A stretch of DNA of 64,000 nucleotides, taken from contig JAUXFX010000001.1 of assembly GCA_030622635.1 (NCBI GenBank), positions 306 through 64,305 on the forward strand. Reading direction: 5' to 3'. The notes under the pieces were generated by a model, which ran no database searches, had not been told where the DNA came from, and saw only the letters and a program-made list of their open reading frames with translations. A program made the position numbers and the translations under genes. Every line of letters begins with the position of its first letter. The stretch's first letter is position 1. This DNA comes from Bacteroidota bacterium (lineage in GTDB: Bacteria; Bacteroidota; Bacteroidia; Bacteroidales; JADFUO01). Shown in pieces: positions 2,328-56,571 of this stretch.

Positions 2328-2348
2328 GAGATTGTTTTTTTATTGTTT

Positions 2349-3200
2349 TTAATCTTCTTCACTTTTCAACTTGTCGGGATTTTTAATAAACTTTTTATCT
2401 TCAGATTTTACTCTGCGTTCTAATTTCTTCACATCTTCTTCAGGTGGTAGTTCTTCAGGTTTTATTCCACGTTCAAGTAATAGCTTTCTCACACCTTTAT
2501 TGTTTCTGATGTGTTCCCACGAAATTTGCTGTCCTGATTTTATATCCTTATCATTTATGTTAAAAATAGTAATTTCCGTAGCAAAGTCTTTAGCTTTTAT
2601 AGTAATTGTGGGTAAAAAATCAGCGAGTGGACGATTTTGTTTTATATCAAGTTTTTTCTTCATCTTGCTTGTAGAATATCCAAATAACGCCTGATCGCCT
2701 TTACTGCGAATAATACCGAAATCCCCGTCATTTCCGGTTCGTTCATAAATTAATTCTGAAAGTTCTTTTTCTGATAATGAAAGTTTATGGCGAGCATTTA
2801 AACGCTCCCAGTCTTTTATGCGTTGTTCAATTATCTCGAATTTCCTTGTTTGGACAGCAAAATAGTTTTGTGCAAAAGCAATTTGTTCTTTTTTGGGGTC
2901 TCCGTTTTGAGCTATCAGATAACAAGCAAAACGAGTGAGCATAATATCGTTAATTTCGCGTTCGGTCCCTGAGCCGATTTTGACCATTTTGTTGATGTCA
3001 ACAAAATGGTCTAAAACTATATGAACTGTAGTTTCGCAAGATGTTTTGGCTTTGTTTATTATCTTTAAAAAGTTGCGCCATTCGGTATAGCCAAGTAAGT
3101 GTTGTAAATCTCTGGCTAACCAAAATTCTATACCATTCTCAGTTTGATTAGCATAAGATTCAAAATCTTCGGTAAGATGTTTTACAATTTCCTTTTTCAT
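2349..3200 (-). CDS. dinD: DNA-damage-inducible protein D (DinD family)
   Basis: 283-aa ORF. The N-terminal FESYANQTENGIEFWLARDLQHLLGYTEWRNFLKIINKAKTSC and overall length match the DinD family as I recall it. Confidence 0.8.
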   Translation of the reverse strand: MKKEIVKHLTEDFESYANQTENGIEFWLARDLQHLLGYTEWRNFLKIINKAKTSCETTVHIVLDHFVDINKMVKIGSGTEREINDIMLTRFACYLIAQNGDPKKEQIAFAQNYFAVQTRKFEIIEQRIKDWERLNARHKLSLSEKELSELIYERTGNDGDFGIIRSKGDQALFGYSTSKMKKKLDIKQNRPLADFLPTITIKAKDFATEITIFNINDKDIKSGQQISWEHIRNNKGVRKLLLERGIKPEELPPEEDVKKLERRVKSEDKKFIKNPDKLKSEED

Positions 3201-3289
3201 TTTTTATTTATTTTGTTGCTGACTTCCCCGACCTGTTGGAAGTTCTTTTTGTTTTAATTATTTAGTTGTCTGCTAATTTACAATAAATC

Positions 3290-15399: not shown

Positions 15400-16275
15400 T
15401 CAGGCACTATAAGTTTCAATATTTCTATCAAGTTTTTTAGCCATACCTTGAAGAACATTGCCGGGTCCTACTTCAATAAATGTTTTGGCACCATCTGCAA
15501 TCATATTCTGCATTATCTGCGTCCACCTTACAGGAGAAGTTAGCTGAGAAATCAGATTGGTTTTAATAATTTCAGGATCGGTAACAGACTGGCCTGTAAC
15601 ATTCTGATATATCGGGCAAGTACCCTGACTGAATTTAGTAGATTTGATAGCTTCTGCAAGTTCAACTCTGGCAGGCTCCATTAAAGGTGAATGGAAAGCT
15701 CCTCCTACTTTTAACGGAAGAGCTCTTTTAGCTCCTGCTTCCTTTAGCTTTTCGCAAGCAATTTCAACACCTTTGAATGAGCCCGAAATAACCAGTTGTC
15801 CCGGACAATTATAGTTTGCCGGAATTACAATCTCATTAATTGAGTCTAAAATTTTTTCAACGGTTTTATCGTCAAGACCGATAATTGCTGCCATTGTTGA
15901 AGATTCTGACTCACAAGCTTTTTGCATTGCCCTTGCTCTGGCAAATACTAATTTTAATCCGTCTTCAAACAATAATGTTTTATTGGCAACCAAGGCAGAG
16001 AATTCTCCAAGTGAATGTCCGGCAACCATGTCAGGTTTAAAATCTTCACCTAAAGTTTTTGCAAGAATTACAGAATGCAGAAAAATTGCAGGTTGTGTAA
16101 CATTTGTTTGTCTCAGGTCTTCATCAGTACCATCAAACATCAAGTCGGTTATACGAAATTTTAAAATATTGTTTGCTTTTTCAAACAGGTCTTTTGCTTT
16201 TGAAGAATTTTTATATAAATCTTTGCCCATTCCAACAAACTGAGCACCCTGTCCGGGAAATACATAAGCTTTCAT
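15400..16275 (-). CDS. fabD: Malonyl-CoA:ACP transacylase
   Basis: 291 aa. It has GQGAQFVGMG, GHSLGEFSAL and GAFHSPLM. Confidence 0.92.
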   Translation of the reverse strand: MKAYVFPGQGAQFVGMGKDLYKNSSKAKDLFEKANNILKFRITDLMFDGTDEDLRQTNVTQPAIFLHSVILAKTLGEDFKPDMVAGHSLGEFSALVANKTLLFEDGLKLVFARARAMQKACESESSTMAAIIGLDDKTVEKILDSINEIVIPANYNCPGQLVISGSFKGVEIACEKLKEAGAKRALPLKVGGAFHSPLMEPARVELAEAIKSTKFSQGTCPIYQNVTGQSVTDPEIIKTNLISQLTSPVRWTQIMQNMIADGAKTFIEVGPGNVLQGMAKKLDRNIETYSA

Positions 16276-16346
16276 TACATTAATTTTTAATTGTTAAAGA
16301 AATTTAAAGCGGAAAATTTATTGTAAAGATGTGATCAAATAAAATA

Positions 16347-17075
16347 CTATTTACGATTTCCTAAAAAACGCAGCAAAAATAAGAATAAATTTATAAAATC
16401 AAGGTATAAATTTAAAGCTCCAATAATAGTTAGTTTTTTTGCCGGTTCAGCCCCGTATTGTAATCCACTTCCAATCCTTTTCAGCTTTTGAACATCATAA
16501 GCTGTAAGACCTGTAAAAACAAGGACTCCAATAAAACTGATAATATAATCCAAAGAGCTGCTATGCATAAAGAAATTCGCAACACTGGCAATTATTATCC
16601 CAATCAATCCCATAAACATAATTGAGCCGAATTTAGTGAGATCGGTTTTGGTAGTATAACCTACGAATGCCATTAAGCCAAACATGCCGGAAGTTACAAT
16701 AAATGTTAAAGTAATTGAACTGGCAGTATAAACAAGCAGAATAAAGCTTAAGCTCATTCCCATCAAAATGGCAAAAGCAATAAATAGCAATGATAATATT
16801 CCTGAAGATAATTTGCTAAAACCAAAGGACATCAGTAACACAAATCCGAATGGTGATAAAAACACTACCCAACCCAAAGTGTTCATACCTCCTGTTTCCG
16901 GATTTATTAAACTACCAATTAATTTGGGGTCCGATGCAAAAAAATATGATGTAGCTGCTGTAATTGCGAGTGCTAAAAACATCCACAAAAAAACATTTGC
17001 AACAAATGTGCGCGACATTGAAATCCCTTCCTGTTGCGATTGGGCTATATTGAAAGTGTTATTTTTTGTAAGCAT
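16347..17075 (-). CDS. BAX inhibitor-1/YccA family membrane protein
   Basis: 242 aa with about 7 TM helices and the basic C-terminal tail LRFLGNRK typical of the family. Confidence 0.75.
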   Translation of the reverse strand: MLTKNNTFNIAQSQQEGISMSRTFVANVFLWMFLALAITAATSYFFASDPKLIGSLINPETGGMNTLGWVVFLSPFGFVLLMSFGFSKLSSGILSLLFIAFAILMGMSLSFILLVYTASSITLTFIVTSGMFGLMAFVGYTTKTDLTKFGSIMFMGLIGIIIASVANFFMHSSSLDYIISFIGVLVFTGLTAYDVQKLKRIGSGLQYGAEPAKKLTIIGALNLYLDFINLFLFLLRFLGNRK

Positions 17076-17140
17076 TTTTGTATTATACTATTATCCTGTA
17101 AAATTTTATTTTTTTAGTAAAGTATTGGTTTTGTATTTAT

Positions 17141-17204
17141 CAGTTCTCAGTCTCCAGTCCTCAGTCTATTTTCGTTGACTGCCGACTAACTGTTACTGAC
17201 ACTG
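17141..17204. repeat. Syllable hairpin: (CAGTNNN)x4 arm and (NNNACTG)-type arm
   Basis: The arms are cagttctcagtctccagtcctcagtct ... gactgccgactaactgttactgacactg. Confidence 0.8.
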
Positions 17205-17307
17205 CAACTTAGTTTCTTGTCATTCAAGATTCAACATAGAATTGAATTAATTACATTTGATAACGAAATAAAAAAACAAATATTATTGGGCATTAAAAGA
17301 GTATTTA

Positions 17308-17931
17308 TTAATGTAATTTTGAACCTATTAAATGTATAAATTCCGCTCGGGTTTCCTGTCGTTTGAATGCACCTGTAAAATCAGATGTTGTAGTTACGGA
17401 GTTTTGTTTTTGAACGCCTCTCATTATCATACATAAATGTTGTGCTTCAATTACAACAGCCACACCCAGTGGTTTGAGCGTAGAATCAATAGCTTCTTTT
17501 ATTTGTGTTGTTAGTCTTTCCTGAACCTGCAACCGCCTGGCATAAGCTTCAACAACTCTTGCAATTTTACTTAAGCCTGTAATGTATTGGTTTGGGATAT
17601 ATGCAACATGTGCTTTACCAATAAAAGGTATCAAATGGTGTTCGCATAACGAAAATATTTCAATATTCTTTACAATTACCATTTCCCTGTAATCTTCTCT
17701 AAACATTGCCGATTTCAGGATTTCTACCGGGTCGTGTTCATAGCCCTGAGTCATGAACTGCATTGCTTTGGCAACTCTTAACGGCGTATCAAGCAAGCCT
17801 TCACGATTGGGATCTTCTTCAATCAATTTTAAGATTTCTTTGTAATAGCCACTTAACTTTTCCAAATTTTCAACATTATGGTTTTCTATCTTTTCATAAC
17901 TAAAAATATGATTATTCTTTTTTTTCATCAT
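17308..17931 (-). CDS. folE: GTP cyclohydrolase I
   Basis: 207 aa. It has CEHHLIPF and a [10 protein letters not shown] motif. Confidence 0.92.
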
Positions 17932-17998
17932 TAGTTTAATATTAAATTTTCAAGGCAACAAAATATTTTTGGGGCAAAATTAAGAAACTTATCAGGTA

Positions 17999-18118
17999 AA
18001 GCACCAAATAACAAATAACAAATAACAAATAAATTCGAAATATCAATGATCAAATGACCGAAACTGTTTTGGTCATTGAATTTTTGAACATTGTAATTTA
18101 TTTGATATTTGGTGCTTG
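17999..18118. repeat. Syllable hairpin: (AAATAAC)n arm, inner 25-nt palindrome, complementary arm
   Basis: The left arm aagcaccaaataacaaataacaaataacaaataaatt faces aatttatttgatatttggtgctt. Between them is the palindrome aatgaccgaaac-t-gttttggtcatt (18053-18077). Confidence 0.85.
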
Positions 18119-18254
18119 TCATCCATACGGACAAGTTTTGTAATTTTTAATATTTATTTAAACTTTCGGACTTTATAGACGGACTAAATAGCTTGAATTA
18201 ATAATCAATATAAATCCAATTAAATCCTTTTAACGTATTATCAATAAAAATATT

Positions 18255-18262
18255 TACTTTTG
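18255..18262 (+). promoter_or_regulatory. Bacteroidota -7 box TAnnTTTG (TACTTTTG) upstream of the antitoxin
   Basis: It lies 40 nt upstream of ATG 18302. An identical box sits at 26363-26370 in repeat copy 2. Confidence 0.4.
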
Positions 18263-18301
18263 TAATTGAAACTATAATATTAAACAAAAAACATAACATT
18301 T

Positions 18302-18508
18302 ATGAAAGGCATTAATTTTGTAACCAACGACAAGGGAGAAAAAATTGCATTACAATTAGATTTAAAAAATCCTGATGAAAAGATGATTGAATTAATTGAA
18401 GAAATTGAAGATATTATTGATGTGGATTTAAGGAAGAATAGTAGTACAAGAGATTATATTGAAATTAGAGAAGAATTGAAGGAAAAAGGAATTATAAGCA
18501 ATGCATAA
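18302..18508 (+). CDS. Putative antitoxin of the RelE/ParE module
   Basis: 68 aa and acidic. Its stop overlaps the toxin start by 8 nt. Confidence 0.55.
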   Translation: MKGINFVTNDKGEKIALQLDLKNPDEKMIELIEEIEDIIDVDLRKNSSTRDYIEIREELKEKGIISNA

Positions 18509-18761
18509 GGTTAAAATCAGCGAAGATGCAATAAAGGATCTTGCTAAAATCCCGCTTAGATATGCAAATAGAATTGATATTGAAATTCTTAAACTTGCTG
18601 AAGATCCACGACCACGGGAATGTGTTAAATTAAAAGGGAAACGGAATTTATATAGGATTAGAATTGGCATGTACAGAATTATTTATTCAATTCATGATGA
18701 CTGCCTTATTGTTAAAATAATTAAAATAGGTCAAAGAAAAGATATTTACAGGAAAATATAA
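18501..18761 (+). CDS. Type II toxin, RelE/ParE family
   Basis: 86 aa. The pattern KLKGKRNLYRIRIGMYRIIYSIHDDCLIVKIIKIGQRKDIY is the canonical RelE/ParE C-terminal pattern. Confidence 0.85.
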   Translation: MHKVKISEDAIKDLAKIPLRYANRIDIEILKLAEDPRPRECVKLKGKRNLYRIRIGMYRIIYSIHDDCLIVKIIKIGQRKDIYRKI

Positions 18762-18797
18762 CAAACTTAATAAAACATTCCATTTATCTTACCCAAA

Positions 18798-20897
18798 ATG
18801 ATAAAACGGGGCTTGAACATACTCATTCATCCTTTAACTCTCAGTTTGCTGATAAGCTGTATTATAATTTCTTTACTTCCTCCTGTATTTAATAAATACA
18901 AGGCTAAAATCAATGAGACAAGAAAAATTCATGAACCTGAAATCTTTTCATATTATGATTTGGACTCTGACGGTTTTAGTGAAGAAATCTTGTATTATGG
19001 CCCACCTGATAATTATCCTTCATTAATTGTAAGAAATAAAGGAAAAATTATTGATCAAAAGAATTTTGAGGGAGTTTTTACCCCAGGTGATTTTTTTATA
19101 TATTGCGATTACAATAGTGATTCTATTGCTGAAATATTTGTTTTAACAATTAAAAATGATTCAATTATCCTTACCGGTGTTAACCCATATAAGGTTGGGG
19201 AAACTCATTTCATAAAGTTATTCATTGACAAATGCAGTATGTATGATGGTAGATACGATTGCCATGCTCATTTCTGTGACTCACCTGATACTGATGAGAA
19301 CGGTTACAAGGAACTGGTTTTCGGAATAAATACAGGGAGGTCAAAACAACCAAGAAATCTATACTTGGTGGATATTTTCAATGACACAGTTATTAAATCG
19401 CCGGTAAGTGGCACTGCAATCCATATACCTGTAGCTTTTGATATAAATAATGACGGATACAATGAATATATGGGGAAAAGTTGTGCGCATGGAAACTTTT
19501 ATAGGGATTCAATAGATTATCCCGATACACATGCCTGGCTAATGGTATTAGACAGAAAAATGAATTTTTTATTTGAACCCAAAAAGTTTGGCCAGTACAA
19601 AACAATTATAGATGTAAAGCCATTTAGGCCATTTAAAACTAATTATCTTATTGTTTTACAAAAACACCAGGGGACAGAAAACATAGATAACAAGCTTATA
19701 TTGTTTGATTCTAATGGGAATGAAATCAAGGAAAGATTATTAGAAGATTTTAGTGTCATTGAAAATTCATTTCTTATGTCACGAGATAAAGTAAGATGTA
19801 ATGATTTATACTTGTTCCTAAATAATGGACAAATTGAGCAAATTGATTCGAATTTAAATATTGTTAGCAAAATTTCTCTACCGGATATTCAAAATGTAAG
19901 GCCTTTTCGTATTGATGCGGATTTAGATGGATTGGATGAATTTGTCTTCACTGCGCAAGATAAACAAGGTTTGATCATAACAAGAAATGATTTTACATTT
20001 CCTGTTAAATTGGAATTTATCAATAATATGAATGTATGGCCATATTTTTCTATTAAAAGGCAAGGATACGAAAAACCGAAACTTTATACTCAAATAGGCG
20101 GGCAAAGTTTTATTATAGAATACTCTAAAAATCCACTACATCCCCTTAAATACTTCATCTGGATTGGAATATATGTGGGTGTCTTTTTCTTCCTTTTTCT
20201 TTTACAAAAAGTACAACAGATCAGAGCAAAGCATAAATATGAAACAGAAAAGAAGATCGCCGAGCTGCAGCTTAAGTATGTAAAAACCCAGACTGACCCT
20301 CATTTCACTTTGAATATTATAAATTCATTAGGAACCTTATTTTACCAAAATGATCCGGATAAGGCAAACTATATTTTTGGTAAATATGCCCAAATGTTAA
20401 GAAATACTATTTTACGCTCTGACGATATTTCAATCTCTTTGTCCGAAGAAATTGAATATGTTGAAAATTTTCTGGATCTTGAGAAATTCAGTCTGAATAA
20501 TAAGTTTGATTATAAAATTGAGATAGCTAAAAATGTAAATCAGGATAATAAAGTACCAAAGATGCTTTTACATACTTTTGTTCAAAATGCGATAAAACAC
20601 GGAATCAGGCATTTAAAGACCAAAGGAGAATTAAATATCAGTTTGGAAGCAAGTAACAAAAATTACATTTTTACTATTAGTGATAATGGTGTTGGCAGGA
20701 TAAAAGCAAAAGAATATTCTAAATTAAGCACAGGAAAGGGATTGAAGATACTTGATCAAATATTAGAGCTTTACTATAATCTGGAAGGGATCAAGATAAA
20801 ATATGATATTGTTGATTTATATGATAATTTTGGGGATCCGGCAGGTACAAAAGTAATAATTAATGTACCTGTTAAAATTAACGTGAGTCCAGGATAA
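18798..20897 (+). CDS. Sensor histidine kinase: N-terminal TM, FG-GAP/VCBS-like beta-propeller sensor, TM, LytS/YehU-type His_kinase + GHKL ATPase
   Basis: 699 aa. There are five DxDxDG-like repeats (DLDSDGFSE, DYNSDSIAE, DTDENGYKE, DINNDGYNE, DADLDGLDE). A TM segment YFIWIGIYVGVFFFLFLL follows, then TDPHFTLNIINSL and ISDNGVG...GKGLK. Confidence 0.8.
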   Translation: MIKRGLNILIHPLTLSLLISCIIISLLPPVFNKYKAKINETRKIHEPEIFSYYDLDSDGFSEEILYYGPPDNYPSLIVRNKGKIIDQKNFEGVFTPGDFFIYCDYNSDSIAEIFVLTIKNDSIILTGVNPYKVGETHFIKLFIDKCSMYDGRYDCHAHFCDSPDTDENGYKELVFGINTGRSKQPRNLYLVDIFNDTVIKSPVSGTAIHIPVAFDINNDGYNEYMGKSCAHGNFYRDSIDYPDTHAWLMVLDRKMNFLFEPKKFGQYKTIIDVKPFRPFKTNYLIVLQKHQGTENIDNKLILFDSNGNEIKERLLEDFSVIENSFLMSRDKVRCNDLYLFLNNGQIEQIDSNLNIVSKISLPDIQNVRPFRIDADLDGLDEFVFTAQDKQGLIITRNDFTFPVKLEFINNMNVWPYFSIKRQGYEKPKLYTQIGGQSFIIEYSKNPLHPLKYFIWIGIYVGVFFFLFLLQKVQQIRAKHKYETEKKIAELQLKYVKTQTDPHFTLNIINSLGTLFYQNDPDKANYIFGKYAQMLRNTILRSDDISISLSEEIEYVENFLDLEKFSLNNKFDYKIEIAKNVNQDNKVPKMLLHTFVQNAIKHGIRHLKTKGELNISLEASNKNYIFTISDNGVGRIKAKEYSKLSTGKGLKILDQILELYYNLEGIKIKYDIVDLYDNFGDPAGTKVIINVPVKINVSPG

Positions 20898-20935
20898 ATA
20901 AAGAACATAATCGGGTAATTCGTTAAAAAATGGAT

Positions 20936-20983
20936 AATTAACCTAATTTCTAATTGATCTAATTGACCTAAAAAATGACCAAT
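20936..20983. repeat. 48-nt direct repeat, copy 1 (upstream of the four-helix-bundle gene)
   Basis: aattaacctaatttctaattgatctaattgacctaaaaaatgaccaat is identical base for base to 21379-21426. Confidence 0.95.
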
Positions 20984-21019
20984 TTAAAATGACCAATAAA
21001 TAAAAAATAATTAATTAAT

Positions 21020-21376
21020 ATGGAAAAGGACGATATAAAATATGATTTAGAAGAAAGAACAGCTAAGTTTGGAGAAGATGTTATAGAATTTTGTAAAAAA
21101 GTTCCAAGAGACCTGATAACAAATCCGCTAATCACACAGCTTGTTAAATCAGGTACTAGTGTTGGGGCTAATTATTGTGAAGCCGATGATGCAGAGAGTA
21201 AAAAAGATTTTAAACACAAAATAGGGATAGTTAAAAAAGAATCTCGGGAATCAAAGCACTTCATACGAATGATTGTTTTTGCTGTTCCTGAATTGAAAAA
21301 GGATGGACAACCATTATGGCAGGAAGCAAAAGAATTAAATTTAATATTCAATTCAATTTTTCATAAAGTGAAGTAA
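21020..21376 (+). CDS. Four-helix-bundle protein (23S rRNA intervening-sequence protein / Avd-like family)
   Basis: 118 aa. LVKSGTSVGANYCEADDAESKKDFKHKIGIVKKESRESKHFIRMI matches the family pattern (SxGANxxEA ... E..Et..wl). Confidence 0.85.
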   Translation: MEKDDIKYDLEERTAKFGEDVIEFCKKVPRDLITNPLITQLVKSGTSVGANYCEADDAESKKDFKHKIGIVKKESRESKHFIRMIVFAVPELKKDGQPLWQEAKELNLIFNSIFHKVK

Positions 21377-21378
21377 AA

Positions 21379-21426
21379 AATTAACCTAATTTCTAATTGA
21401 TCTAATTGACCTAAAAAATGACCAAT
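21379..21426. repeat. 48-nt direct repeat, copy 2 (starts 3 nt after the four-helix-bundle stop)
   Basis: Identical to 20936-20983; the period is 443 bp. Confidence 0.95.
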
Positions 21427-21474
21427 GTAATAATAACCAAAATTTAGACATTAGATTTTGGGATTTGATTAGAG

Positions 21475-21504
21475 CAATTAGATCAATTAGAGTAATTAGA
21501 AATT
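21475..21504. repeat. Imperfect inverted copy of the 48-mer core
   Basis: The reverse complement of caattagatcaattagagtaattagaaatt is aatttctaattactctaattgatctaattg. This matches ctaatttctaattgatctaattg (21386-21408 and 20943-20965) apart from a 9-nt extra syllable. Confidence 0.8.
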
Positions 21505-21546
21505 TAAAACATATTAGAGCAGTTATAATAAATTTAATGATCAACT

Positions 21547-22149
21547 ATGAAACAAATAACCTGCATAATACTTGATGATGAAAAAGAGGCAAGGGATAGA
21601 ATTGTAATACTTTTAAGTAAGTTTGAAGGTATTAAGATAATTGGCATTGAAGGAGAACCGGAAAAAGGCATTGATAGTATTACTTCAAAAATACCCGATT
21701 TAGTATTTATTGATGTTGAAATGCCAAGGTTAACCGGTTTTGATGTAGTACGTGAAGTCAGAAAAAATAATGTAAATCCAGATTTCATTTTTGTAACCGG
21801 ATATAATCAATATGCTATCAAAGCAATTAAAAAAGAAGCATTTGATTACCTCCTCAAACCGGTTGATATTGATGAATTAAATGAAACAATAAACAGATAT
21901 AAAAGTAGCATTTATACGCGTTTAAAAGAAAAAAAATCTAAACAAACTGATGTGCTCAGTAAGTTCTCTGAAAGGGAAATAGAAATAATAAAGTTAATTG
22001 CCGAATATAAAACAAGCAAGCAAATTTCTGAAAAATTATATATCAGTAAAAATACAGTTGATACCCACAGGAGAAACATTTTAGAAAAAGCAGGGCTTCA
22101 TAAAACTGCTGAATTGGTGGTATTTGCGAGGGAAAATGGGCTGGTATAA
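21547..22149 (+). CDS. Response regulator, REC domain + LuxR/NarL-type HTH
   Basis: 200 aa. It has ILDDE...DLVFIDVEMP...KP (REC) and a C-terminal FSEREIEIIKLIAEYKTSKQISEKLYISKNTVDTHRRNILEK. Confidence 0.85.
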   Translation: MKQITCIILDDEKEARDRIVILLSKFEGIKIIGIEGEPEKGIDSITSKIPDLVFIDVEMPRLTGFDVVREVRKNNVNPDFIFVTGYNQYAIKAIKKEAFDYLLKPVDIDELNETINRYKSSIYTRLKEKKSKQTDVLSKFSEREIEIIKLIAEYKTSKQISEKLYISKNTVDTHRRNILEKAGLHKTAELVVFARENGLV

Positions 22150-22315
22150 ATTTGTTTTAACTTTGTTTGTATTATTTATCTAAAATTAAATCTTTGTCAA
22201 ATATTAAACTATTTCAAGCCCAATGCGTGATGCAGATATAGCCGATACCGAAACACTTTTGAGTTGTAACATCAAAAAATTATTTACAAAAATTGAATTT
22301 CTGGTGTAAAACACT

Positions 22316-22323
22316 TATCTTTG
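22316..22323 (+). promoter_or_regulatory. TAnnTTTG box (TATCTTTG) upstream of hicB
   Basis: It lies 41 nt upstream of ATG 22364. Confidence 0.4.
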
Positions 22324-22363
22324 TAGAAATGATAAAACGGGATAATAAAAATAATCAATTGTT

Positions 22364-22570
22364 ATGGAATATACTGCAATTATAAATAATATTGAGGATT
22401 GGTGGGTAGGGTGGATTGAGGAGATTCCAGGTGTAAATTGCCAGGAAAAAACCCGAAGTAAATTATTAGAAAGCCTGAAAATAATCCTGAAAGAAGCCCT
22501 GGAATTTAACAGGCAAGATGCACTATCAGTTGCCGGAGAAGGTTATGAAGAAGAGAGAATAGCTGTATGA
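22364..22570 (+). CDS. hicB: HicB-family antitoxin (short form)
   Basis: 68 aa. MEYTAIINNIEDWWVGWIEEIPGVNCQEKTRSKLLESLKIILKEALEF matches the HicB N-domain pattern. Its stop overlaps the hicA start (ATGA). Confidence 0.7.
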   Translation: MEYTAIINNIEDWWVGWIEEIPGVNCQEKTRSKLLESLKIILKEALEFNRQDALSVAGEGYEEERIAV

Positions 22571-22761
22571 AAAGAAGCAAACTTCTTAAGTATCTGCGAA
22601 TAAATGGTTGCATATTATTACGTGAAGGAGGAAATCATTCGTGGTGGATAAACCCGGCACAAAATAAACGTTCTTCAATTCCACGACATAATGAAATTAA
22701 AAATGAATCTTACAGCAATAATCGAAAAATCAGAAGATGGTTGGTATGTCGGGCAAATTGA
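22567..22761 (+). CDS. hicA: HicA-family toxin with atypical C-terminus
   Basis: MKRSKLLKYLRINGCILLREGGNHSWWINPAQNKRSSIPRHNEIK is canonical HicA. The last 19 aa (NESYSNNRKIRRWLVCRAN) are encoded out of frame over the next hicB-like gene and do not resemble the usual C-terminal helix. Confidence 0.65.
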   Translation: MKRSKLLKYLRINGCILLREGGNHSWWINPAQNKRSSIPRHNEIKNESYSNNRKIRRWLVCRAN

Positions 22762-22897
22762 GGAGTTTCCAGCTGCAATATCACAGGGCAAAACAATAGA
22801 TGAACTGAAAGCGAATTTGATTGATGCTTTTATGCTGCTTTTAGAAACAAACAAAGAAAGTTATTTAGCAAATACACAATTAGTATGCGATTGCTGA
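22703..22897 (+). CDS. hicB: Second HicB-family antitoxin
   Basis: MNLTAIIEKSEDGWYVGQIEEFPAAISQGKTIDELKANLIDAFMLLLE is a classic HicB pattern. The track start 22691 is also possible. Confidence 0.65.
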   Translation: MNLTAIIEKSEDGWYVGQIEEFPAAISQGKTIDELKANLIDAFMLLLETNKESYLANTQLVCDC

Positions 22898-23398
22898 ATA
22901 ACATGTAACTTGCCATTTGATTAGAAATTAGTGCAATTAGATTAATTAGGTCAATTTCGTTTCAATCATTTAAAGTAATGTTAAAATTTTTAAGTTGTGA
23001 ACAGTTACAAATATAGTTTAATATTCCCTGACTCAAAAAAATCTGCAGGATATACGCCCCTTTGTTTAGTTGTGGATATATTATTCAAACACCCAATATC
23101 AAAAAAACAAATAACAACCCGCCGGGGTGCTGACAAGTTTAACCATTTAACAATTCAACCATTTAACTCCAGATACGCTCATTCTTCGCTATCGGGATCT
23201 CCGCTTCGCTCCGACATTCATCAATTTTAAAATCTAAATTTTAAAATCTAAAATCATAAATCACAAATCCCTCCATCCCCTTTTAATAGTATCAATTTAC
23301 CATTTTGATGGTATTGGAAGTTGGTATCATCTGGTTGTAATTTTGTTTCAGTTTATTTTAAATCAAATTATTTTATTAATCAAAAATAGGAGGTTATT

Positions 23399-25069
23399 AT
23401 GAAAAAAGTATTTTTTACTATTCTTGGAATCTTAGTTTTTTGTGGATTATTCGCACAGGAGATACCACAGAAAATATCTTATCAGGGTAAATTGCTTGAA
23501 AATGGCAACCCTGTAAACGGAACAAAAAGCATCACATTTACCATCAGTACGTGGAGCGAAACAAAAAGCGTTACAGTAAATAACGGGCTGTATTCAGTAA
23601 CACTTGGCGAAACAACGCCTATTCCAACAAGTATTTTTGATAATACTTCAAGTGTTACTTTGCAAATATCAGTTGAAGGTGTTACGCTTTCACCTCAAAC
23701 AGATATATTATCAGTTGCTTATGCTTATAAAGCTTATAAAGCAGAAAAATCTGTAGATGCAGAGAAAATAGCAGGTAATCCTGTATCAGGTACTCCAAGT
23801 ACAAATCAAGTATTAAAATGGAATGGTACTCAATGGGTGCCTAACACAGATTTAACTGGGGGTCCCCCAACAGGCACAGCGAGTGGTGATTTATCAGGGA
23901 ATTATCCAAATCCAAAAGTAATTGGCTTGCAGAACAAGCCTGTTTCAAGTTTAGCACCTTCTACAAATAAGGTATTAAAATGGGATGGATCACAATGGAA
24001 ACCTCAAATAGATGAAACTCTTAATGGTACTCAAGCGGGTGGTGATTTATCAGGGAATTATCCAAATCCAAAAGTAATCGGCTTGCAGAACAGGCCTGTT
24101 TCAAGTTCAACACCTTCTACAAACCAAGTGTTAACATGGAGTGGGAACCAATGGAAACCGTCAAATCCAACAGGCAGCAGTCTCTGGTCACAAAGTGGTA
24201 GCAACATCTTTTACAATTCTGGCAATGTTGGTATTGGAACTTCTAATCCATATGGAATCTTTGAAGTTTTTAGTACAAGCAATGTAGAAGAGTATGTAAC
24301 ATCAGGCTCTGCAACAGGTTCTGCTAGAACATGGTATTCGTCTGGTTCAGTAGGTTTTGGTAATTCGTGGAATGTTGGTATTAGAGGTGACTTGAATAAA
24401 GGATACGCTATTGAAAGTTATTCAGGAGGTTGGGCACCAAGATTGTTTATTACACAAGCAGGGAATGTTGGAATTAACACGTCAAATCCACAAGAACTCC
24501 TTAATGTAGCAGGGGGGACGATAGAAGTTTACCCGGCTACTGATGGTCAAAGAGGGATTAGGATTAGGTCTGCTGATCAAAGCGAAAATTTTATTCTTGA
24601 CATGAAAAATGATGGCACAATGCAAATAGGTGCAAATTCAGGCACTATGCAGTTATCTTCTACATTCGGAGTTGATTCACGCAACTTATCGGGTACATGG
24701 CGGCCCATGAGTGCATCTAGCTTCAATGTCCGGAGTTCAAGAAGTCTCAAGTCTAACATAAAATATATTGACCAATTCGGCACCGCATATTGGCTTGAGC
24801 AAATCTTACTAATGAAGCCTGCCAACTATATTTATAATTGGGAAGCTGAATCAACTCAATCTCGACTTGGTTTCATTGTAGAAGAATTACCCGAAGAATT
24901 AAAGGGGCAAGATGGTAAATCTGTTAACCTTTATGCACTAACAAGTGCTGGAATAGTAGGTATTAAAGGTTTGTATCTAATGTTGGAGAAACAGCAAGAA
25001 CTTATTAAAAGTTTACAGGAAGAAATAGAAGCATTGAAAAATAAGGAGGACAACCATGAAACCAATTAA
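23399..25069 (+). CDS. Secreted tail-fiber-like protein with C-terminal intramolecular-chaperone (peptidase S74-like) domain
   Basis: 556 aa with signal peptide MKKVFFTILGILVFCGLFAQ. It has 2.5 tandem repeats of GDLSGNYPNPKVIGLQN[KR]PVSS..PSTN.VL.W.G.QW.P. The C-terminus is SSRSLKSNIKYI...RLGFIVEELPEEL...VNLYALTSAGIVGIKGLYLMLEKQQELIKSLQEEIEALK. AGGAGG lies 5 nt before the ATG. Confidence 0.75.
   Translation: MKKVFFTILGILVFCGLFAQEIPQKISYQGKLLENGNPVNGTKSITFTISTWSETKSVTVNNGLYSVTLGETTPIPTSIFDNTSSVTLQISVEGVTLSPQTDILSVAYAYKAYKAEKSVDAEKIAGNPVSGTPSTNQVLKWNGTQWVPNTDLTGGPPTGTASGDLSGNYPNPKVIGLQNKPVSSLAPSTNKVLKWDGSQWKPQIDETLNGTQAGGDLSGNYPNPKVIGLQNRPVSSSTPSTNQVLTWSGNQWKPSNPTGSSLWSQSGSNIFYNSGNVGIGTSNPYGIFEVFSTSNVEEYVTSGSATGSARTWYSSGSVGFGNSWNVGIRGDLNKGYAIESYSGGWAPRLFITQAGNVGINTSNPQELLNVAGGTIEVYPATDGQRGIRIRSADQSENFILDMKNDGTMQIGANSGTMQLSSTFGVDSRNLSGTWRPMSASSFNVRSSRSLKSNIKYIDQFGTAYWLEQILLMKPANYIYNWEAESTQSRLGFIVEELPEELKGQDGKSVNLYALTSAGIVGIKGLYLMLEKQQELIKSLQEEIEALKNKEDNHETN
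23885..24146 (+). repeat. Intragenic tandem duplication, 156-nt period (52 aa)
   Basis: ggtgatttatcagggaattatccaaatccaaaagtaat[tc]ggcttgcagaaca[ag]gcctgtttcaagtt... at 23885 and again at 24041. Identity is high by eye over about 105 nt. A more diverged partial unit lies at 23771-23850. Confidence 0.85.
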
Positions 25070-25562
25070 AATACTTTCAATTGCTATATTTTTACTCTGC
25101 TTGAATAATTTCACTCAAGCCCAAAATTATAGCACTTTAGCTGAAGTGCTTTCATCTGGTGGTGGCGAATCCGTCGGGAGTAATTATTCAAATTTTGGGG
25201 TAATTGGTGAAACATTTGTAAGTTATTCTGTAACAGGTGGAAATTATAATACATCCTTTGGATTTCTATATGCATCTGCCATTATTATAGGGATTAACGA
25301 AATGATTTTTAATAATCAATTTATTAGAATATTTCCAAACCCATCAAATGATATAGTTTATATTAAAACAACCGAAACAGGTTTATTCATTAAAAATATT
25401 GAAATATTAAATGTGATCGGAAAATCAGTATATCAAAGAGTTTTGGATAATGCAAATGATTTAATTAAAATATCTGTAACTGATTTTCAACCAGGTTTTT
25501 ATTTTATTAAGCTACATACAAATAAAGGAGTAGTCTTAAATAAATTCATAATTAATCGGTAG
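25056..25562 (+). CDS. Small secreted protein with T9SS type A C-terminal sorting domain
   Basis: 168 aa with a signal peptide. The C-terminal IRIFPNPSNDIVYIKT...GKSVYQ...DFQPGFYFIKLHTNKGVVLNKFII is a Por secretion tail. The start overlaps the upstream gene by 14 nt. AAGGAGG lies 6 nt before the ATG. Confidence 0.8.
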   Translation: MKPIKILSIAIFLLCLNNFTQAQNYSTLAEVLSSGGGESVGSNYSNFGVIGETFVSYSVTGGNYNTSFGFLYASAIIIGINEMIFNNQFIRIFPNPSNDIVYIKTTETGLFIKNIEILNVIGKSVYQRVLDNANDLIKISVTDFQPGFYFIKLHTNKGVVLNKFIINR

Positions 25563-25583
25563 TATTTTATTTAGCGTAAAACT

Positions 25584-25619
25584 AGGCTATCTAAAAAGCA
25601 AGATAGTCTGGTTTTTTCT
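25584..25619 (+). terminator. Rho-independent terminator-like hairpin plus T-run
   Basis: ctaggctatct-aaaaagca-agatagtctgg is followed by tttttt, 22 nt after the stop at 25562. Confidence 0.5.
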
Positions 25620-25674
25620 TATTTTAAAAAAGAAATTGAAAGTGCGTGAAATAATAAATAACAAAGTAGATAAG

Positions 25675-26034
25675 ATGCAGATCACGGATATCATAAAAAC
25701 ATATCTGGATTGGTCTGCTTATTCCAAATCGCAAGATTACCAAGAGATGTTGAATATAACTATTCCCAATTCCAAGTTCTTTGAGATTTCAAATTTATGC
25801 AAAAAAAGCTGGGCTCTCGGTATAGATTGTTATTATGAGTTTAGTTCTGTTAAGGTCATTAAAATAATTAACACTCCGCATAGTGCATTGGTAAAAGGAG
25901 ATATAAGGTTAATTCAATCCAATAAAAAATTAAGTTTCAAAGGGAAATTCCAATCAAGCTGTTTGTTTGAAACAATTGATAATAAAGGAAATTCATGGAA
26001 ATTGAATGAACTTGGAATAGATTGGGAGCTTTGA
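25675..26034 (+). CDS. Hypothetical protein (no family recognised)
   Basis: 119 aa from ATG 25675 (the track start 25636 is TTG). I recognise no motifs. It is the last gene of the accessory segment. Confidence 0.4.
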   Translation: MQITDIIKTYLDWSAYSKSQDYQEMLNITIPNSKFFEISNLCKKSWALGIDCYYEFSSVKVIKIINTPHSALVKGDIRLIQSNKKLSFKGKFQSSCLFETIDNKGNSWKLNELGIDWEL

Positions 26035-26409
26035 GGTATATAGTGTTTGCAAGGACTATATAATACAAATTCGGGTCTGTTCATAAATTCAAACAATTTT
26101 TGTTACTGTTGACATAATATTTTTTGTTAAAAGTATTGAAACAGCATCAAAATCAAAACACACTTCTTAATTCGTTGTTCAAATGTTCAAATGTTCGTTA
26201 TTCAATTTTACATGAGGCTGAACAGTAACCAATTTTTTAAATTTGGTGCTTGTAATTTGTTATTTTTAATATTTATTTAAACTATCGGACTTTATGGACG
26301 GACTAAATAGCTTGAGTTAATAATTATAAAAATCCTTTTAACGTATTATCAATAAAAATATTTACTTTTGTAATTGAAACTATAATATTGAACAAAAAAC
26401 ATAACATTT

Positions 26410-26616
26410 ATGAAAGGCATTAATTTTGTAACCAACGACAAGGGGAAAAAAATTGCATTGCAATTAGATTTACAAAATCCTGATGAAAGGATGATTGAGT
26501 TAATTGAGGAAATTGAAGATATTATTGATGTGGATTTAAGGAAAAATGACAGTACAAGAAATTATCTTGTAATTAGAGAAGAGTTGAAGGAAAAAGGAAT
26601 TATCAGCAATTCTTGA
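26410..26616 (+). CDS. Orphan antitoxin (paralog of 18302-18508)
   Basis: 68 aa. MKGINFVTNDKGKKIALQLDLQNPDERMIELIEEIEDIIDVDLRKN... is near-identical to the first copy. Confidence 0.55.
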   Translation: MKGINFVTNDKGKKIALQLDLQNPDERMIELIEEIEDIIDVDLRKNDSTRNYLVIREELKEKGIISNS

Positions 26617-26680
26617 TGATCATCTAATTGTTAAAATAATTAAAATAGGTCAAAGAAAAGATATTTACCGGAAAATATAA
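26615..26680 (+). pseudogene. RelE/ParE toxin remnant (C-terminal 21 codons)
   Basis: Manual translation gives DDHLIVKIIKIGQRKDIYRKI*, matching the end of the intact toxin (HDDCLIVKIIKIGQRKDIYRKI). No start codon or N-terminal part remains. Confidence 0.7.
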
Positions 26681-26741
26681 CTAATTTAATAAAACCTTCC
26701 ATTTCTCTCATAGCAAGATAGTAAGAAAGTTGAAATTAAAT

Positions 26742-27764
26742 TCATTTAAAAACATCAAAACGAGTTCCTATCCAGAACCTTATCTGGTTCATGTTGTAAT
26801 TAAAATTTGTTTCTCCTATTTGTACCGGTGAAGCATTGAAGCCAAAAACACCACCAATCCCGACATAGAATTTATCGGAATTGTAACCCAATGCTCCTCT
26901 GCTTAACCATAATAAGGATACTTCCTCGCTTTTGTTAATACCTTCTTCTGTGTCATATTTGTAAGTTTGCAGGAATATACCGGGAATAAATGAATAATTT
27001 ATATAAAAATATTTTAGAAATACCACAGTGTATGAATAACCGGCAGATAAACCATAAGTAAAAAAAACACCTTTTATAATTTGTTCATAAGGATCAATAT
27101 TATATTTATCAATAATTGTCTGTGGAATAATGGATGAATCAGCTGATAATTTTAAATATACAAACGAAGGCATTAATATAATTGAACCTGAACTTTTTTT
27201 CTGCCTTTCGTTTTGGATGTATGATGCCCTGATTGAATGTTTTTTATAATTAAATATGTAATATAAAATAGCACTTGTAGAAAAAATATGCATATCCGGA
27301 CGTTGTGGGTATTTATCACCAGTATTCCAGCTTTGGAAAATATCGTCTGCGTTTTCAATATAAAAGTGTCTGTAATCCTGAAACGATAGTTCGGCAGCAA
27401 TTGCATTTCCATAAGCATTTATACGTAAGTCAATAACCTTACTTTTCCCTTTACTATCGTTTTTATTTGAACTAAAAGGATTCTTAACAGCTAATCCCAA
27501 ACCAAACCATTTGTAAAACCCGGCTATTCCGTTTTTAATATCTATATTGGGTCTATAATTTATTTTTTTTCCAAAATTTGTCGGGTTTATTGTAAAGCAG
27601 ATACTTTCGCTTAATAAATAAAATCTTGCTGTAAGTAAATCTTTATAATCGGCAATATATTCGGGATTAAATTTCGATGATTTTAGTGTATCTTTTTGTG
27701 ATGCAGAAACTATAAAATCGCATAAAATTAAAATCAATAAAATGATATAGCTAAATTGTTTCAT
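26742..27764 (-). CDS. Putative outer-membrane beta-barrel protein (possibly DUF4421-like)
   Basis: 340 aa with a signal peptide, alternating-hydrophobic strands, and a C-terminal aromatic residue (…RFDVFK). The family name is from memory only. Confidence 0.4.
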   Translation of the reverse strand: MKQFSYIILLILILCDFIVSASQKDTLKSSKFNPEYIADYKDLLTARFYLLSESICFTINPTNFGKKINYRPNIDIKNGIAGFYKWFGLGLAVKNPFSSNKNDSKGKSKVIDLRINAYGNAIAAELSFQDYRHFYIENADDIFQSWNTGDKYPQRPDMHIFSTSAILYYIFNYKKHSIRASYIQNERQKKSSGSIILMPSFVYLKLSADSSIIPQTIIDKYNIDPYEQIIKGVFFTYGLSAGYSYTVVFLKYFYINYSFIPGIFLQTYKYDTEEGINKSEEVSLLWLSRGALGYNSDKFYVGIGGVFGFNASPVQIGETNFNYNMNQIRFWIGTRFDVFK

Positions 27765-27801
27765 CTGTTTATATTTATTAAAAAATAATCATTCCCCAGT
27801 G

Positions 27802-27828
27802 TGAACCGACGGGTAACCCGTCGGTTCA
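27802..27828. terminator. Perfect 27-nt GC-rich palindrome
   Basis: tgaaccgacgggt-a-acccgtcggttca. It is downstream of the minus-strand bactofilin/AtpZ/membrane gene set. Confidence 0.45.
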
Positions 27829-27979
27829 TGTTCGTTTCATGTAAATTCCTTAAAAGCAATAAATTTCTTAATGCAAATATAATATTATCCTGTAATCACG
27901 AAATTTCGGGATTGATTTTTTAGCAAAGTATTGGTTTTTTGATTATCACTTAAGCTAATTTGTTTGTAGCTATGCTACG

Positions 27980-28372
27980 CTAAGTTGTTTTTCGGGTTTT
28001 TGAATATGAAAGTATGGATATTACTTCAAAAACAGTGTAAAAAATATATAAGATAAAAAATGTAATTATAAATGGAATTGCATCGGATCTGTTCAGAAGA
28101 ACATAAATTAATAACACTGCTATGTAAAGCATAAGTTTTAAAAAAGTTGCAAGCATAAAGTAGGTTGTAAACTTGCTGAATCTTTTTTCAGATGCTTTTA
28201 ATAAAACATAATGAACTACAAGTGTTACGGAAAGAAAAAATAAAAACAAGTATGGCAGTGCCGGAGTGATAGATTCGTAAGGTAAAAAATATCCGACAAT
28301 AAAACATATCAGTGCAAAAGCAACTGAAAAAATTATTATTCTTTTTAAAAAGTTGAGATAAACAGACTTCAT
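27980..28372 (-). CDS. Hypothetical 4-TM membrane protein
   Basis: 130 aa with four hydrophobic helices. Its position after the AtpZ-like gene resembles the small membrane ORF that precedes atpB in many Bacteroidota (from memory). Confidence 0.4.
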   Translation of the reverse strand: MKSVYLNFLKRIIIFSVAFALICFIVGYFLPYESITPALPYLFLFFLSVTLVVHYVLLKASEKRFSKFTTYFMLATFLKLMLYIAVLLIYVLLNRSDAIPFIITFFILYIFYTVFEVISILSYSKTRKTT

Positions 28373-28404
28373 TGCTCATTAATATTAGTTTTATATCAAA
28401 TTAG

Positions 28405-28626
28405 TTATTTCTTTTTTATAAGGTCTTTAATAACATAATAAATAGCTAAAATTACTGATAAAATAGCTAAAACAACTGTAAAAACAGGGAATTCCAATTT
28501 AATCAGTTTATCAAGTTCAATACCGCCAAATACACCAACGAGTATTATCACCAGCATTTGCACAGCGATAGTAGAATATCTGGCATAACTATCAAATGCT
28601 TTTTTCTTTGATTTTAGGTCCTTCAT
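28405..28626 (-). CDS. AtpZ/AtpI-family small membrane protein
   Basis: 73 aa. YARYSTIAVQMLVIILVGVFGGIELDK plus a second TM is the typical AtpZ pattern. Confidence 0.6.
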   Translation of the reverse strand: MKDLKSKKKAFDSYARYSTIAVQMLVIILVGVFGGIELDKLIKLEFPVFTVVLAILSVILAIYYVIKDLIKKK

Positions 28627-28999
28627 TTTTTAAAGGGAATTTATTATCTGATAATTTTGTTTCCCCCATATTACACGAACCGGAAAATTTTGCTCCTGGC
28701 TCAATTGCAAGTTTACCTGTTGTAACTTCCCCTGAAAATTTAGCCGAAGCTTTTAAAGAAAGTAGCTCAGCTACAGTTACATTTGCTTTTACCTTTCCTG
28801 AAATGTCGGCATTCTGGCATTTGATCTCTCCCTCAACATTTCCTGTAGAACCAACAACCACCTTGCCTTTTGAACTTATTGAACCTATTAAAGTACCATC
28901 AATTCTAAAATCACCGTTTGATTCAATATCACCTTTTACGGTAGTGTCGGCACCGAGTAAATTTCTGGAAGCGGTTTCATTAATATTATTTTTAGCCAT
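28592..28999 (-). CDS. Bactofilin (polymer-forming cytoskeletal protein)
   Basis: 135 aa. It has repetitive beta-helix motifs: VKGDIESNGDFRIDGTLIGSISSKGKVVVGSTGNVEGEI... Confidence 0.85.
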   Translation of the reverse strand: MAKNNINETASRNLLGADTTVKGDIESNGDFRIDGTLIGSISSKGKVVVGSTGNVEGEIKCQNADISGKVKANVTVAELLSLKASAKFSGEVTTGKLAIEPGAKFSGSCNMGETKLSDNKFPLKNEGPKIKEKSI

Positions 29000-29018
29000 T
29001 TTATTAAGTGTTTATATG

Positions 29019-56494: not shown

Positions 56495-56571
56495 GAAATT
56501 TGAAATTTGAAATTCGAAATTTAAAAAACTTATTTTAACAGCCTAATTTCAAATATCCAATTTCTAATTTC
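56495..56571. repeat. Syllable hairpin: (GAAATTT)x4 arm and (AAATTTC)-type arm
   Basis: The arms are gaaatttgaaatttgaaattcgaaattt ... aatttcaaatatccaatttctaatttc. Confidence 0.8.

Follow-up and report, generated by a model that had tools for sequence, protein, structure and literature searches.

A small selfish cassette related to 23S rRNA intervening sequences, with a four-helix-bundle gene between inverted syllable arrays, splits a sensor kinase-regulator pair in a Bacteroidota genome

The closest described relatives of the element reported here are the intervening sequences (IVSs) of 23S rRNA, which are known from Leptospira, Coxiella burnetii and Brucella and carry an S23p open reading frame (ORF). 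In Coxiella the IVS has a 28-bp terminal stem that is cut by RNase III, and the structure of its S23p protein is a homopentameric four-helix bundle (PMC4990558). IVSs are AT-rich compared with their hosts and sporadic in distribution; horizontal transfer has been proposed for them, their ORF has been proposed to serve mobility, and the Coxiella ORF has been reported to be decaying and not expressed (PMC4990558). A study of rRNA insertions in the Candidate Phyla Radiation notes only 23S_rRNA_IVP ORFs within 16S and 23S insertions, and PMC10053308 is listed as mentioning PF05635, the protein family concerned. Here we describe a stretch of 64,000 nt (hereafter the window) from the JADFUO01 Bacteroidota bacterium (assembly GCA_030622635.1, contig JAUXFX010000001.1, positions 306-64,305, forward strand), in which a gene of this protein family lies between a sensor kinase gene and a response regulator gene, as part of a small selfish cassette related to the 23S rRNA IVSs. 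To our knowledge, both the function of the IVS/S23p four-helix-bundle proteins and the reason for their inverted-repeat setting have been open since the early 1990s.

Other described systems share single features with this locus. The Avd protein of diversity-generating retroelements (DGRs) is a four-helix bundle that is pentameric and binds nucleic acid and reverse transcriptase. Correia elements are substrates of RNase III, and repetitive extragenic palindromic sequences (REPs) have a dedicated protein partner, RAYT. The cassette belongs to a large, previously uncatalogued family that has an IVS-like build and occupies ordinary intergenic gaps. Full-text searching of the literature returned no description of free-standing four-helix-bundle cassettes with syllable arrays, absence there being no proof of novelty. 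The parts of the locus, in window coordinates, are as follows.

18798..20897, + strand: sensor histidine kinase of the host, 5' of the insertion (HATPase_c and, at E 4e-15, PF06580 His_kinase)
20936..20983, + strand: left arm A1, copy 1 of the direct repeat (48/48 nt match to 21379-21426)
20943, 20950 and 20959, + strand: CTAATT cores of A1, forming a syllable array
20975-20983, + strand: relic start codon region ATGACCAAT at the end of A1 (homologues start MTN, that is, ATG ACC AAT)
21020..21376, + strand: gene for the 118-aa four-helix-bundle protein (PF05635 / TIGR02436)
21379..21426, + strand: left arm A2, copy 2 of the direct repeat and left arm of an ORF-less miniature
21379..21504, + strand: ORF-less miniature composed of A2, relic start, tail and B1 (local hairpin; layout shared by most of the ORF-less array pairs from other loci)
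21443..21472, + strand: conserved 3' tail motif TTTAGACATTAGATTTTGGGATTTGATTAG, running into the right arm (in many related loci the stop codon is followed by a tail of the TTAGACATTGG..GGGATTTGATTAG type)
21468..21504, + strand: right arm B1, an inverse array of four AATTAG syllables complementary to A1 and A2
21547..22149, + strand: response regulator, the host gene downstream of the insertion (Response_reg plus GerE)
22910..22956, + strand: solo right arm B2 with a degenerate tail (ttgccatttgattag), 83% identical to B1

An earlier note on this DNA had described a perfect 48-nt direct repeat with a period of 443 nt, its second copy beginning 3 nt past the last base of the stop codon, followed by an inverted arm and a related distal block, the whole flanked by a kinase and its presumptive regulator; our sequence and domain checks agree with it on each of these points. 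The copies at 20936-20983 and 21379-21426 are identical, and chance origin is rejected, no match of this kind having appeared in 100 shuffles; beyond the 48 nt a weaker similarity between A1 and A2 reaches 73 nt at 85%. The present ORF starts about 37 nt beyond the relic ATGACCAAT of A1. The arm at 21478-21504 is complementary to both repeat copies (89% over 27 nt), and the distal block at 22927-22956 shares 83% identity with the arm at 21468-21497. Clusters of the hexamers CTAATT and AATTAG number four in the whole window, and all of them are here (A1, A2, B1 and B2). The same note had supposed that either repeat copy could pair with the downstream arm, and folding predicts both pairings: in a 591-nt fold A1 pairs with B1 and encloses the ORF (predicted -108.3 kcal/mol, z-score -3.05), and in a local hairpin A2 pairs with B1 and excludes it (predicted -34.8 kcal/mol, z-score -6.4). 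Two related loci, L003 and L129 (L numbers being our handles for loci), were assembled independently and carry the same A1-ORF-A2-B1 order with diverged arms; the layout is therefore not an assembly artefact.

The enclosing A1:B1 fold reproduces, as had been suggested, the topology of ORF-bearing 23S rRNA IVSs. The cassette is like these in its protein family (PF05635/TIGR02436), in its size (about 430-570 nt) and in having the ORF inside terminal complementary sequences that form a long stem (here 27-nt arms with 89% complementarity and a predicted fold). However, it is flanked by kinase and regulator genes and does not lie in rRNA, the criterion for an IVS being helix 25 or 45. No rRNA was found in the window or in 80 related loci, which bears out the mRNA or intergenic setting given in the earlier note, and a true rRNA IVS is rejected. 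Furthermore, the arms here are arrays of syllables spaced at 7 or 9 nt, in contrast to the unique, near-perfect 28-bp stem of the IVS, and some of these genomes have ORF-less miniatures in further gaps between genes.

The 118-aa protein scores 40.3 bits against PF05635 (cut-off 33.8) and 58.8 bits against TIGR02436 (cut-off 24), so that its placement in the IVS/Avd-like four-helix-bundle family, checked with these hidden Markov models, stands above both curated cut-offs; it also matches PDB 2rld, a structural-genomics protein, at E 7e-10. About 8000 homologues are detectable, the best 120 of which are 78-97% identical to it, and the named ones among these 120 belong to Bacteroidetes, Ignavibacterium and Patescibacteria. 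The gene is under strong purifying selection (pN 0.19 versus pS 0.81, pN/pS 0.24, dN/dS about 0.13-0.24), unlike the Coxiella ORF, and this pattern of substitution points to a functional protein. The G+C content of the ORF follows that of the host (r = 0.76), which argues for long residence in each host.

Scanning one genome per species gave 80 homologous loci, with proteins 68-86% identical, from Patescibacteria (many classes), gammaproteobacterial metagenome-assembled genomes (MAGs), Ignavibacteriota, Bacteroidota, Caldithrix, Bdellovibrionales, Caldisericota and others; arm counts refer to the 78 usable loci. What recurs across these genomes is syllable and architecture rather than the exact 48-mer, for which no search of public collections was made. 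In the flanks of all surveyed loci, a left array of approximately three to four tandem CTAATT(N1/N3) syllables lies directly 5' of the ATG, with a core-to-core period of 9 nt in 88 cases and 7 nt in 43, and about 30 nt past the stop codon a tail resembling TTAGACATTGG..GGGATTTGATTAG is followed by approximately three to four inverse AATTAG syllables. At least two exact cores are present on each side in 72 of the 78 loci, and no locus is without both arrays; local inverted-repeat scores are 30-58, compared with a shuffle mean of around 19. A left-type array immediately after the stop codon, which makes the direct repeat, was counted strictly in only five loci (the window, L003, L017, L055 and L059), with four weaker cases. 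The tabulation of flanking repeats around other four-helix-bundle genes thus makes the inverted arrays the conserved feature (72/78) and the direct repeat a minority variant (about five to nine loci): of the earlier definition of the cassette as ORF plus direct repeat plus inverted repeat, the inverted repeat stands and the direct repeat is no hallmark.

That the cassette is an insertion follows from the comparison of kinase-regulator junctions. A metagenome scan with the regulator gave 80 loci, more than 40 of them with the same kinase-regulator pair, and in most pairs (more than 30 relatives) kinase and regulator overlap or lie 0-30 nt apart; examples are an ATGA overlap in L087, about 10 nt in L088 and no gap in L089, and L092, L096, L098, L102 and others are similar. 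The 650-nt spacer of the window is derived, because most relatives have the tight junction, and these empty sites confirm the view of an inserted cassette that splits a two-component operon. An exact look-up of the kinase returned no record.

Cassettes of other kinds have entered this junction independently, namely GxxExxY genes (L094 and L095) and HicB/HicA (L113). In L094 (2072-2795) and L095 (2381-3001) a GxxExxY gene (TIGR04256, PD-(D/E)XK-like) lies between inverted 8-nt CACNAAG arrays (gccactaagtcacgaagacac ... cttagtggc), and L086 has at this junction an ORF-less hairpin of the CACNAAG type (961-1161); GxxExxY is therefore a second protein family with the design of an ORF inside syllable arrays. 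In L113 a HicB/HicA-like pair occupies 350-1236, and in the window HicB/HicA-like genes lie just 3' of the regulator.

ORF-less pairs of left and right arrays, 80-180 nt long, were found 14 times in other intergenic gaps of ten other loci: three within 6.3 kb in L061, two each in L080 and L081, and one each in L013, L034, L037, L038, L068, L069 and L073. Many keep the ATGAC(C/T)AA start (MTN in the homologues) and the TTTAGACATTGG tail; since the first codons and the 3' tail of the ORF are retained, these miniatures are internal-deletion derivatives of the full cassette. Beside them, L069 has at 3404-3752 a very distant four-helix-bundle-like ORF (E 1.6e-6 with the family profile), flanked by a cassette's right arm on one side and the next miniature on the other. 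In the window A2 is followed by ATGACCAATG and then by the tail motif, in the same order as in the miniatures of other genomes, and the whole segment 21379-21504 (A2, ATGACCAATG, a short stretch, TTTAGACATT..GGGATTTGATTAG, B1) has the make-up of a miniature with the relic start ATGACCAAT. Therefore, the 48-nt repeat represents two left arms, one of an ORF-bearing copy and one of a miniature copy, that share one right arm, and its interpretation as a target duplication is rejected. The expectation that removal of one repeat unit would leave an ordinary spacer of about 200 bp does not hold, since the ancestral spacer was about 0-30 nt and removal would leave a miniature element.

The similarity between A1 and A2 is exceptional, with a score of 107 compared with 42 +/- 10 (maximum 79) for left arms of different loci, and we attribute the perfect 48-mer to recent duplication or gene conversion confined to this lineage; in-situ duplication as the general source of the second left arm (A') is rejected. 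The composite is shared by L003, with an ORF 97% identical to that of the window, and by L129, whose ORF is 98% and regulator 89% identical. A1 and A2 differ from each other at several positions in L003. Comparison of the window with L003 and L129 shows arm variants that have changed places between A1 and A2. The A2 array of L129 has expanded to approximately four to five repeats of a 25-nt unit, CTAATTTCTAATTGACCTAATTGAC (2710-2850). The L129 kinase is only 59% identical to that of the window, compared with the 98% of the four-helix-bundle ORF and 89% of the regulator, a contrast suggestive of recombination or of very rapid sensor evolution. As candidates for the origin of the A-ORF-A'-B arrangement we consider nested insertion followed by deletion, partial duplication, and integration of a circular intermediate.

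The cassettes are strongly oriented with respect to their neighbors. The upstream neighbor is co-directional with the cassette in 76 of 79 loci (76 versus 3) and the downstream neighbor in 62 of 74 (62 versus 12). The window cassette contains no terminator-like site, and its promoter-like sites are at chance level. Together, these observations argue for strand-dependent read-through from the host gene.

Two observations bear on the arms themselves. The hexamer cores are exact although synonymous sites of the ORF are saturated (pS 0.81), and thus the cores are under sequence constraint. Furthermore, a second subfamily of the protein, around 51% identical, combines this layout with TCAAT/ATTGA syllables (L043b, L166, L168, L171 and L173), and L082b has the syllables AAATCCCA/TGGGATTT. 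L166 contains both subfamilies, each beside its own syllable: at 1501-3366 of this contig, which is probably from Patescibacteria, the two four-helix-bundle genes flank PrgI-like and TraC-like genes. L168 and L169 (1400-1990) are identical in the subfamily-2 ORF and the downstream genes and differ in upstream DNA, the left array being missing in L169; in both, the stop codon is followed by a left-type array, and the A-ORF-A'-B arrangement therefore exists in subfamily 2 as well. Because the syllable is lineage-specific, the element's own product is a likelier reader of it than a single host factor.

The reading we favor, and consider probable though well short of certain, is that of an IVS-type cassette that rides in host transcripts, with a stem of the RNase III type and with arms that are probably bound by its own four-helix-bundle protein. 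The unit consists of the left CTAATT array, a gene for a protein of about 120 aa, the short conserved tail and the inverse AATTAG array, and internal deletion of this unit generates the ORF-less miniatures. In the window, an A1-ORF copy abuts an A2-tail-B1 miniature, and this composite was inserted in a once tight, translationally coupled junction. The cassette would be transcribed in sense by read-through from the kinase gene, and the arms in the RNA would form a stem of approximately 25-30 bp, either A1:B1, which encloses the ORF, or A2:B1, which excludes it. Layout, insertion, miniatures, bias in orientation and selection on the gene are observed; cleavage by an RNase, binding of the arms by the protein and a mode of spread are what we infer. 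A double-strand-specific RNase (RNase III, as for the rRNA IVSs) would cut the stem and free the ORF RNA; as such cutting would leave the host cistrons usable, the insertion would be tolerated. The pentameric protein of the cassette would most likely also recognize the arms in a sequence-specific manner, in autoregulation, spread or both, since the cores are kept despite synonymous saturation and each subfamily has its own syllable.

Several results weigh against parts of this reading. No consistent target-site duplication is visible in the flanks, and the relatives with empty sites are too diverged (regulators 65-75% identical) to fix the ends of the insertion. The predicted arm duplex has a mean of -33.3 kcal/mol when both arms are from one locus, -33.6 when they are from two and -18.8 for shuffled arms; partners from one locus thus pair no better than arms combined across loci, locus-specific covariation is not seen, and G:U pairs show no excess over A:C on the sense strand (99 versus 130). 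Hence it is the conserved cores that account for the pairing, a result that weakens a reading by RNA structure only and does not demonstrate selection on the stem itself. Spacers between cores are often mismatched, so that many stems would be 6-bp helices with small internal loops, and RNase III would be expected to cut such imperfect stems less readily than that of Coxiella. Co-inheritance of ORF and arms, with no recognition, could explain the subfamily-specific syllables. Copies within one genome share 72-84% nucleotide identity (90% for two on a single contig, L010), which gives no direct sign of recent movement; a recent transposition burst is rejected on these identities, with the reservation that MAG assemblies would tend to hide one. 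The protein scan of viral contigs gave no match that would indicate carriage by phages. Finally, as to the origin of the composite, A and A' in L017, L055 and L059 are no more similar than random left arms.

Some of the same observations can be read in the terms of a DNA transposon or miniature inverted-repeat transposable element (MITE), in which the arrays would be terminal inverted repeats for a transposase encoded elsewhere, the four-helix-bundle gene a passenger and the miniatures non-autonomous MITEs. This explanation suits the inverted arrays at the ends, the miniatures formed by internal deletion and the existence of both filled and empty sites, as well as the fact that many contigs carrying the gene are shorter than 2 kb, as would fit assembly breaks at repeats (contig L001 begins inside A1). 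We nevertheless think it unlikely. Co-orientation with the upstream gene in 76 versus 3 loci is unexpected for an element with symmetric ends, the gene is under strong purifying selection, the syllable tracks the subfamily even within one genome, and no target-site duplication was identified. Full-length copies encode the four-helix-bundle protein only, according to gene tables rather than searches of whole genomes: transposases are absent from the tables inspected (the window, L003, L004 and L166-L175, the 80 genome loci lying outside this inspection), except for an unrelated Y1_Tnp gene in L003. Within the window itself, where Pfam was applied to 19 ORFs in 15400-29000 (most ORFs of at least 110 aa plus small toxin-antitoxin ORFs), no transposase, integrase or reverse transcriptase family was matched, in keeping with the earlier statement that a transposase is lacking.

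Cassette exchange, which is close to the idea of the earlier note, would instead let a circle of ORF plus left arm integrate at the corresponding arm of a miniature already in place and leave again by recombination of A with A', so that the 48-nt repeat would be a duplicated attachment site. The perfection of the repeat, the exact miniature left by removal of one unit, the occurrence of A-ORF-A'-B in other lineages (L017, L055, L059) and in subfamily 2 (L168, L169), and the exchange of A1 and A2 arm sequences among strains speak for such a route. However, it would always create an A', and approximately 90% of the ORF-bearing copies are without one; in the other composites A and A' are no closer than unrelated left arms, all three related strains keep the composite with no excised state seen, and no integrase or recombinase is present among the nearby scanned ORFs. 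We therefore give this route little credence. Least probable by far, in our judgement, is a host regulatory structure (attenuator, terminator or processing site) of the two-component operon with the four-helix-bundle gene as an ordinary accessory gene. The position between functionally linked genes, the predicted alternative hairpins and the conservation of the locus in three related strains would agree with it, but most relatives are without the spacer, in about 80 other genomes the same cassette and arms separate unrelated genes, and the junction has been invaded independently by GxxExxY and HicAB cassettes. The distribution of the cassette already contradicts this explanation.

Returning to the IVS-type cassette, its likeness to the other systems named above is partial. 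With Avd it shares the fold superfamily; a DGR remnant is rejected, as the 19 scanned ORFs include no reverse transcriptase, the repeat list for 19000-24000 has no pair resembling template and variable repeats, and the four-helix-bundle gene stands alone. It resembles Correia/NEMIS, ERIC and REP/BIME elements in being a short intergenic palindrome, in co-transcription with neighbors and in miniatures scattered between genes. In contrast to these, its full-length form carries a four-helix-bundle gene and not a transposase, and its arms are tandem syllable arrays with the same syllable across many phyla. A REP/RAYT system is rejected, because no Y1_Tnp was found among the scanned window ORFs and the L003 Y1_Tnp gene stands beside different, GC-rich hairpins. 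Integron cassettes are similarly small, promoter-less, single-ORF units with an imperfect hairpin, in sense orientation and expressed by read-through, and toxin-antitoxin cassettes lie nearby in the window. However, the ORF here is inside the hairpin, R''/R' core sites are absent, and the units are scattered and not arrayed; as the arms flank the ORF rather than follow it, and no integrase is encoded among the nearby scanned ORFs, an integron cassette is rejected.

The surroundings of the cassette contain further repeat structures. The solo arm B2 lies 3' of the HicB/HicA-like gene group at 22364-22897 and is kept in L003 (5345-5400), where the DNA upstream of it differs. Just before this position, L003 has at 5118-5345 an ATTCAAC-type syllable hairpin bordered on both sides by about 28 nt of host DNA that form an imperfect direct repeat (GCAAATnCnCAATTAGTAnGCGATTG); this sequence is single-copy in the window at about 22866-22895, and the repeat may be a long target duplication by a related element. 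The L003 Y1_Tnp gene (IS200/RAYT-like, 3846-4319) lies 1.2 kb downstream of the regulator with GC-rich, REP-like hairpins (aaggtgcagcgcaccg); the gene is absent from the window, and its hairpins are unrelated to the CTAATT arrays. In the window, a ParD/ParE-like toxin-antitoxin cassette exists in two copies (18137-18789 and 26256-26708; 89-94% identity), the second without approximately 189 nt, most of the ParE toxin gene, and each copy is preceded by its own hairpin (18005-18122 with three ATAACAA; 26170-26250 with two GTTCAAAT). Intergenic syllable structures also occur at 56495-56570, with four GAAATTT opposite an inverse arm, and at 23221-23261, with two AATTTTAAAATCTA; they may be miniature elements of other cassette families. 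No Rfam family reached its gathering score in the window.

More speculatively, and as a possibility we hold with considerable doubt, the four-helix-bundle IVS proteins in general could be sequence-specific binders of their own flanking arrays, forming transposase-free protein-repeat elements, mobile or regulatory, whose miniatures are served in trans; the A-ORF-A'-B form would then be an intermediate in gain or loss of the ORF through recombination between left arms, and the rRNA IVSs would be a special case of landing. On the host side, the finding means that a translationally coupled kinase-regulator pair is split by 650 nt of foreign sequence, and in genomes of uncultured bacteria the cassettes point to a frequent cause of broken assemblies and of intergenic hairpins that lacked an explanation. 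They provide a simple system for the persistence of a transposase-less element inside operons, and the CTAATT arrays, as RNA or DNA, are a concrete, testable candidate ligand for the four-helix-bundle protein. The rRNA IVS would be one landing site of a much larger cassette family with subfamily-specific arms and miniatures, which spans Patescibacteria, the Fibrobacteres-Chlorobi-Bacteroidetes (FCB) group (Bacteroidota, Ignavibacteriota and relatives), gammaproteobacterial MAGs and other phyla.

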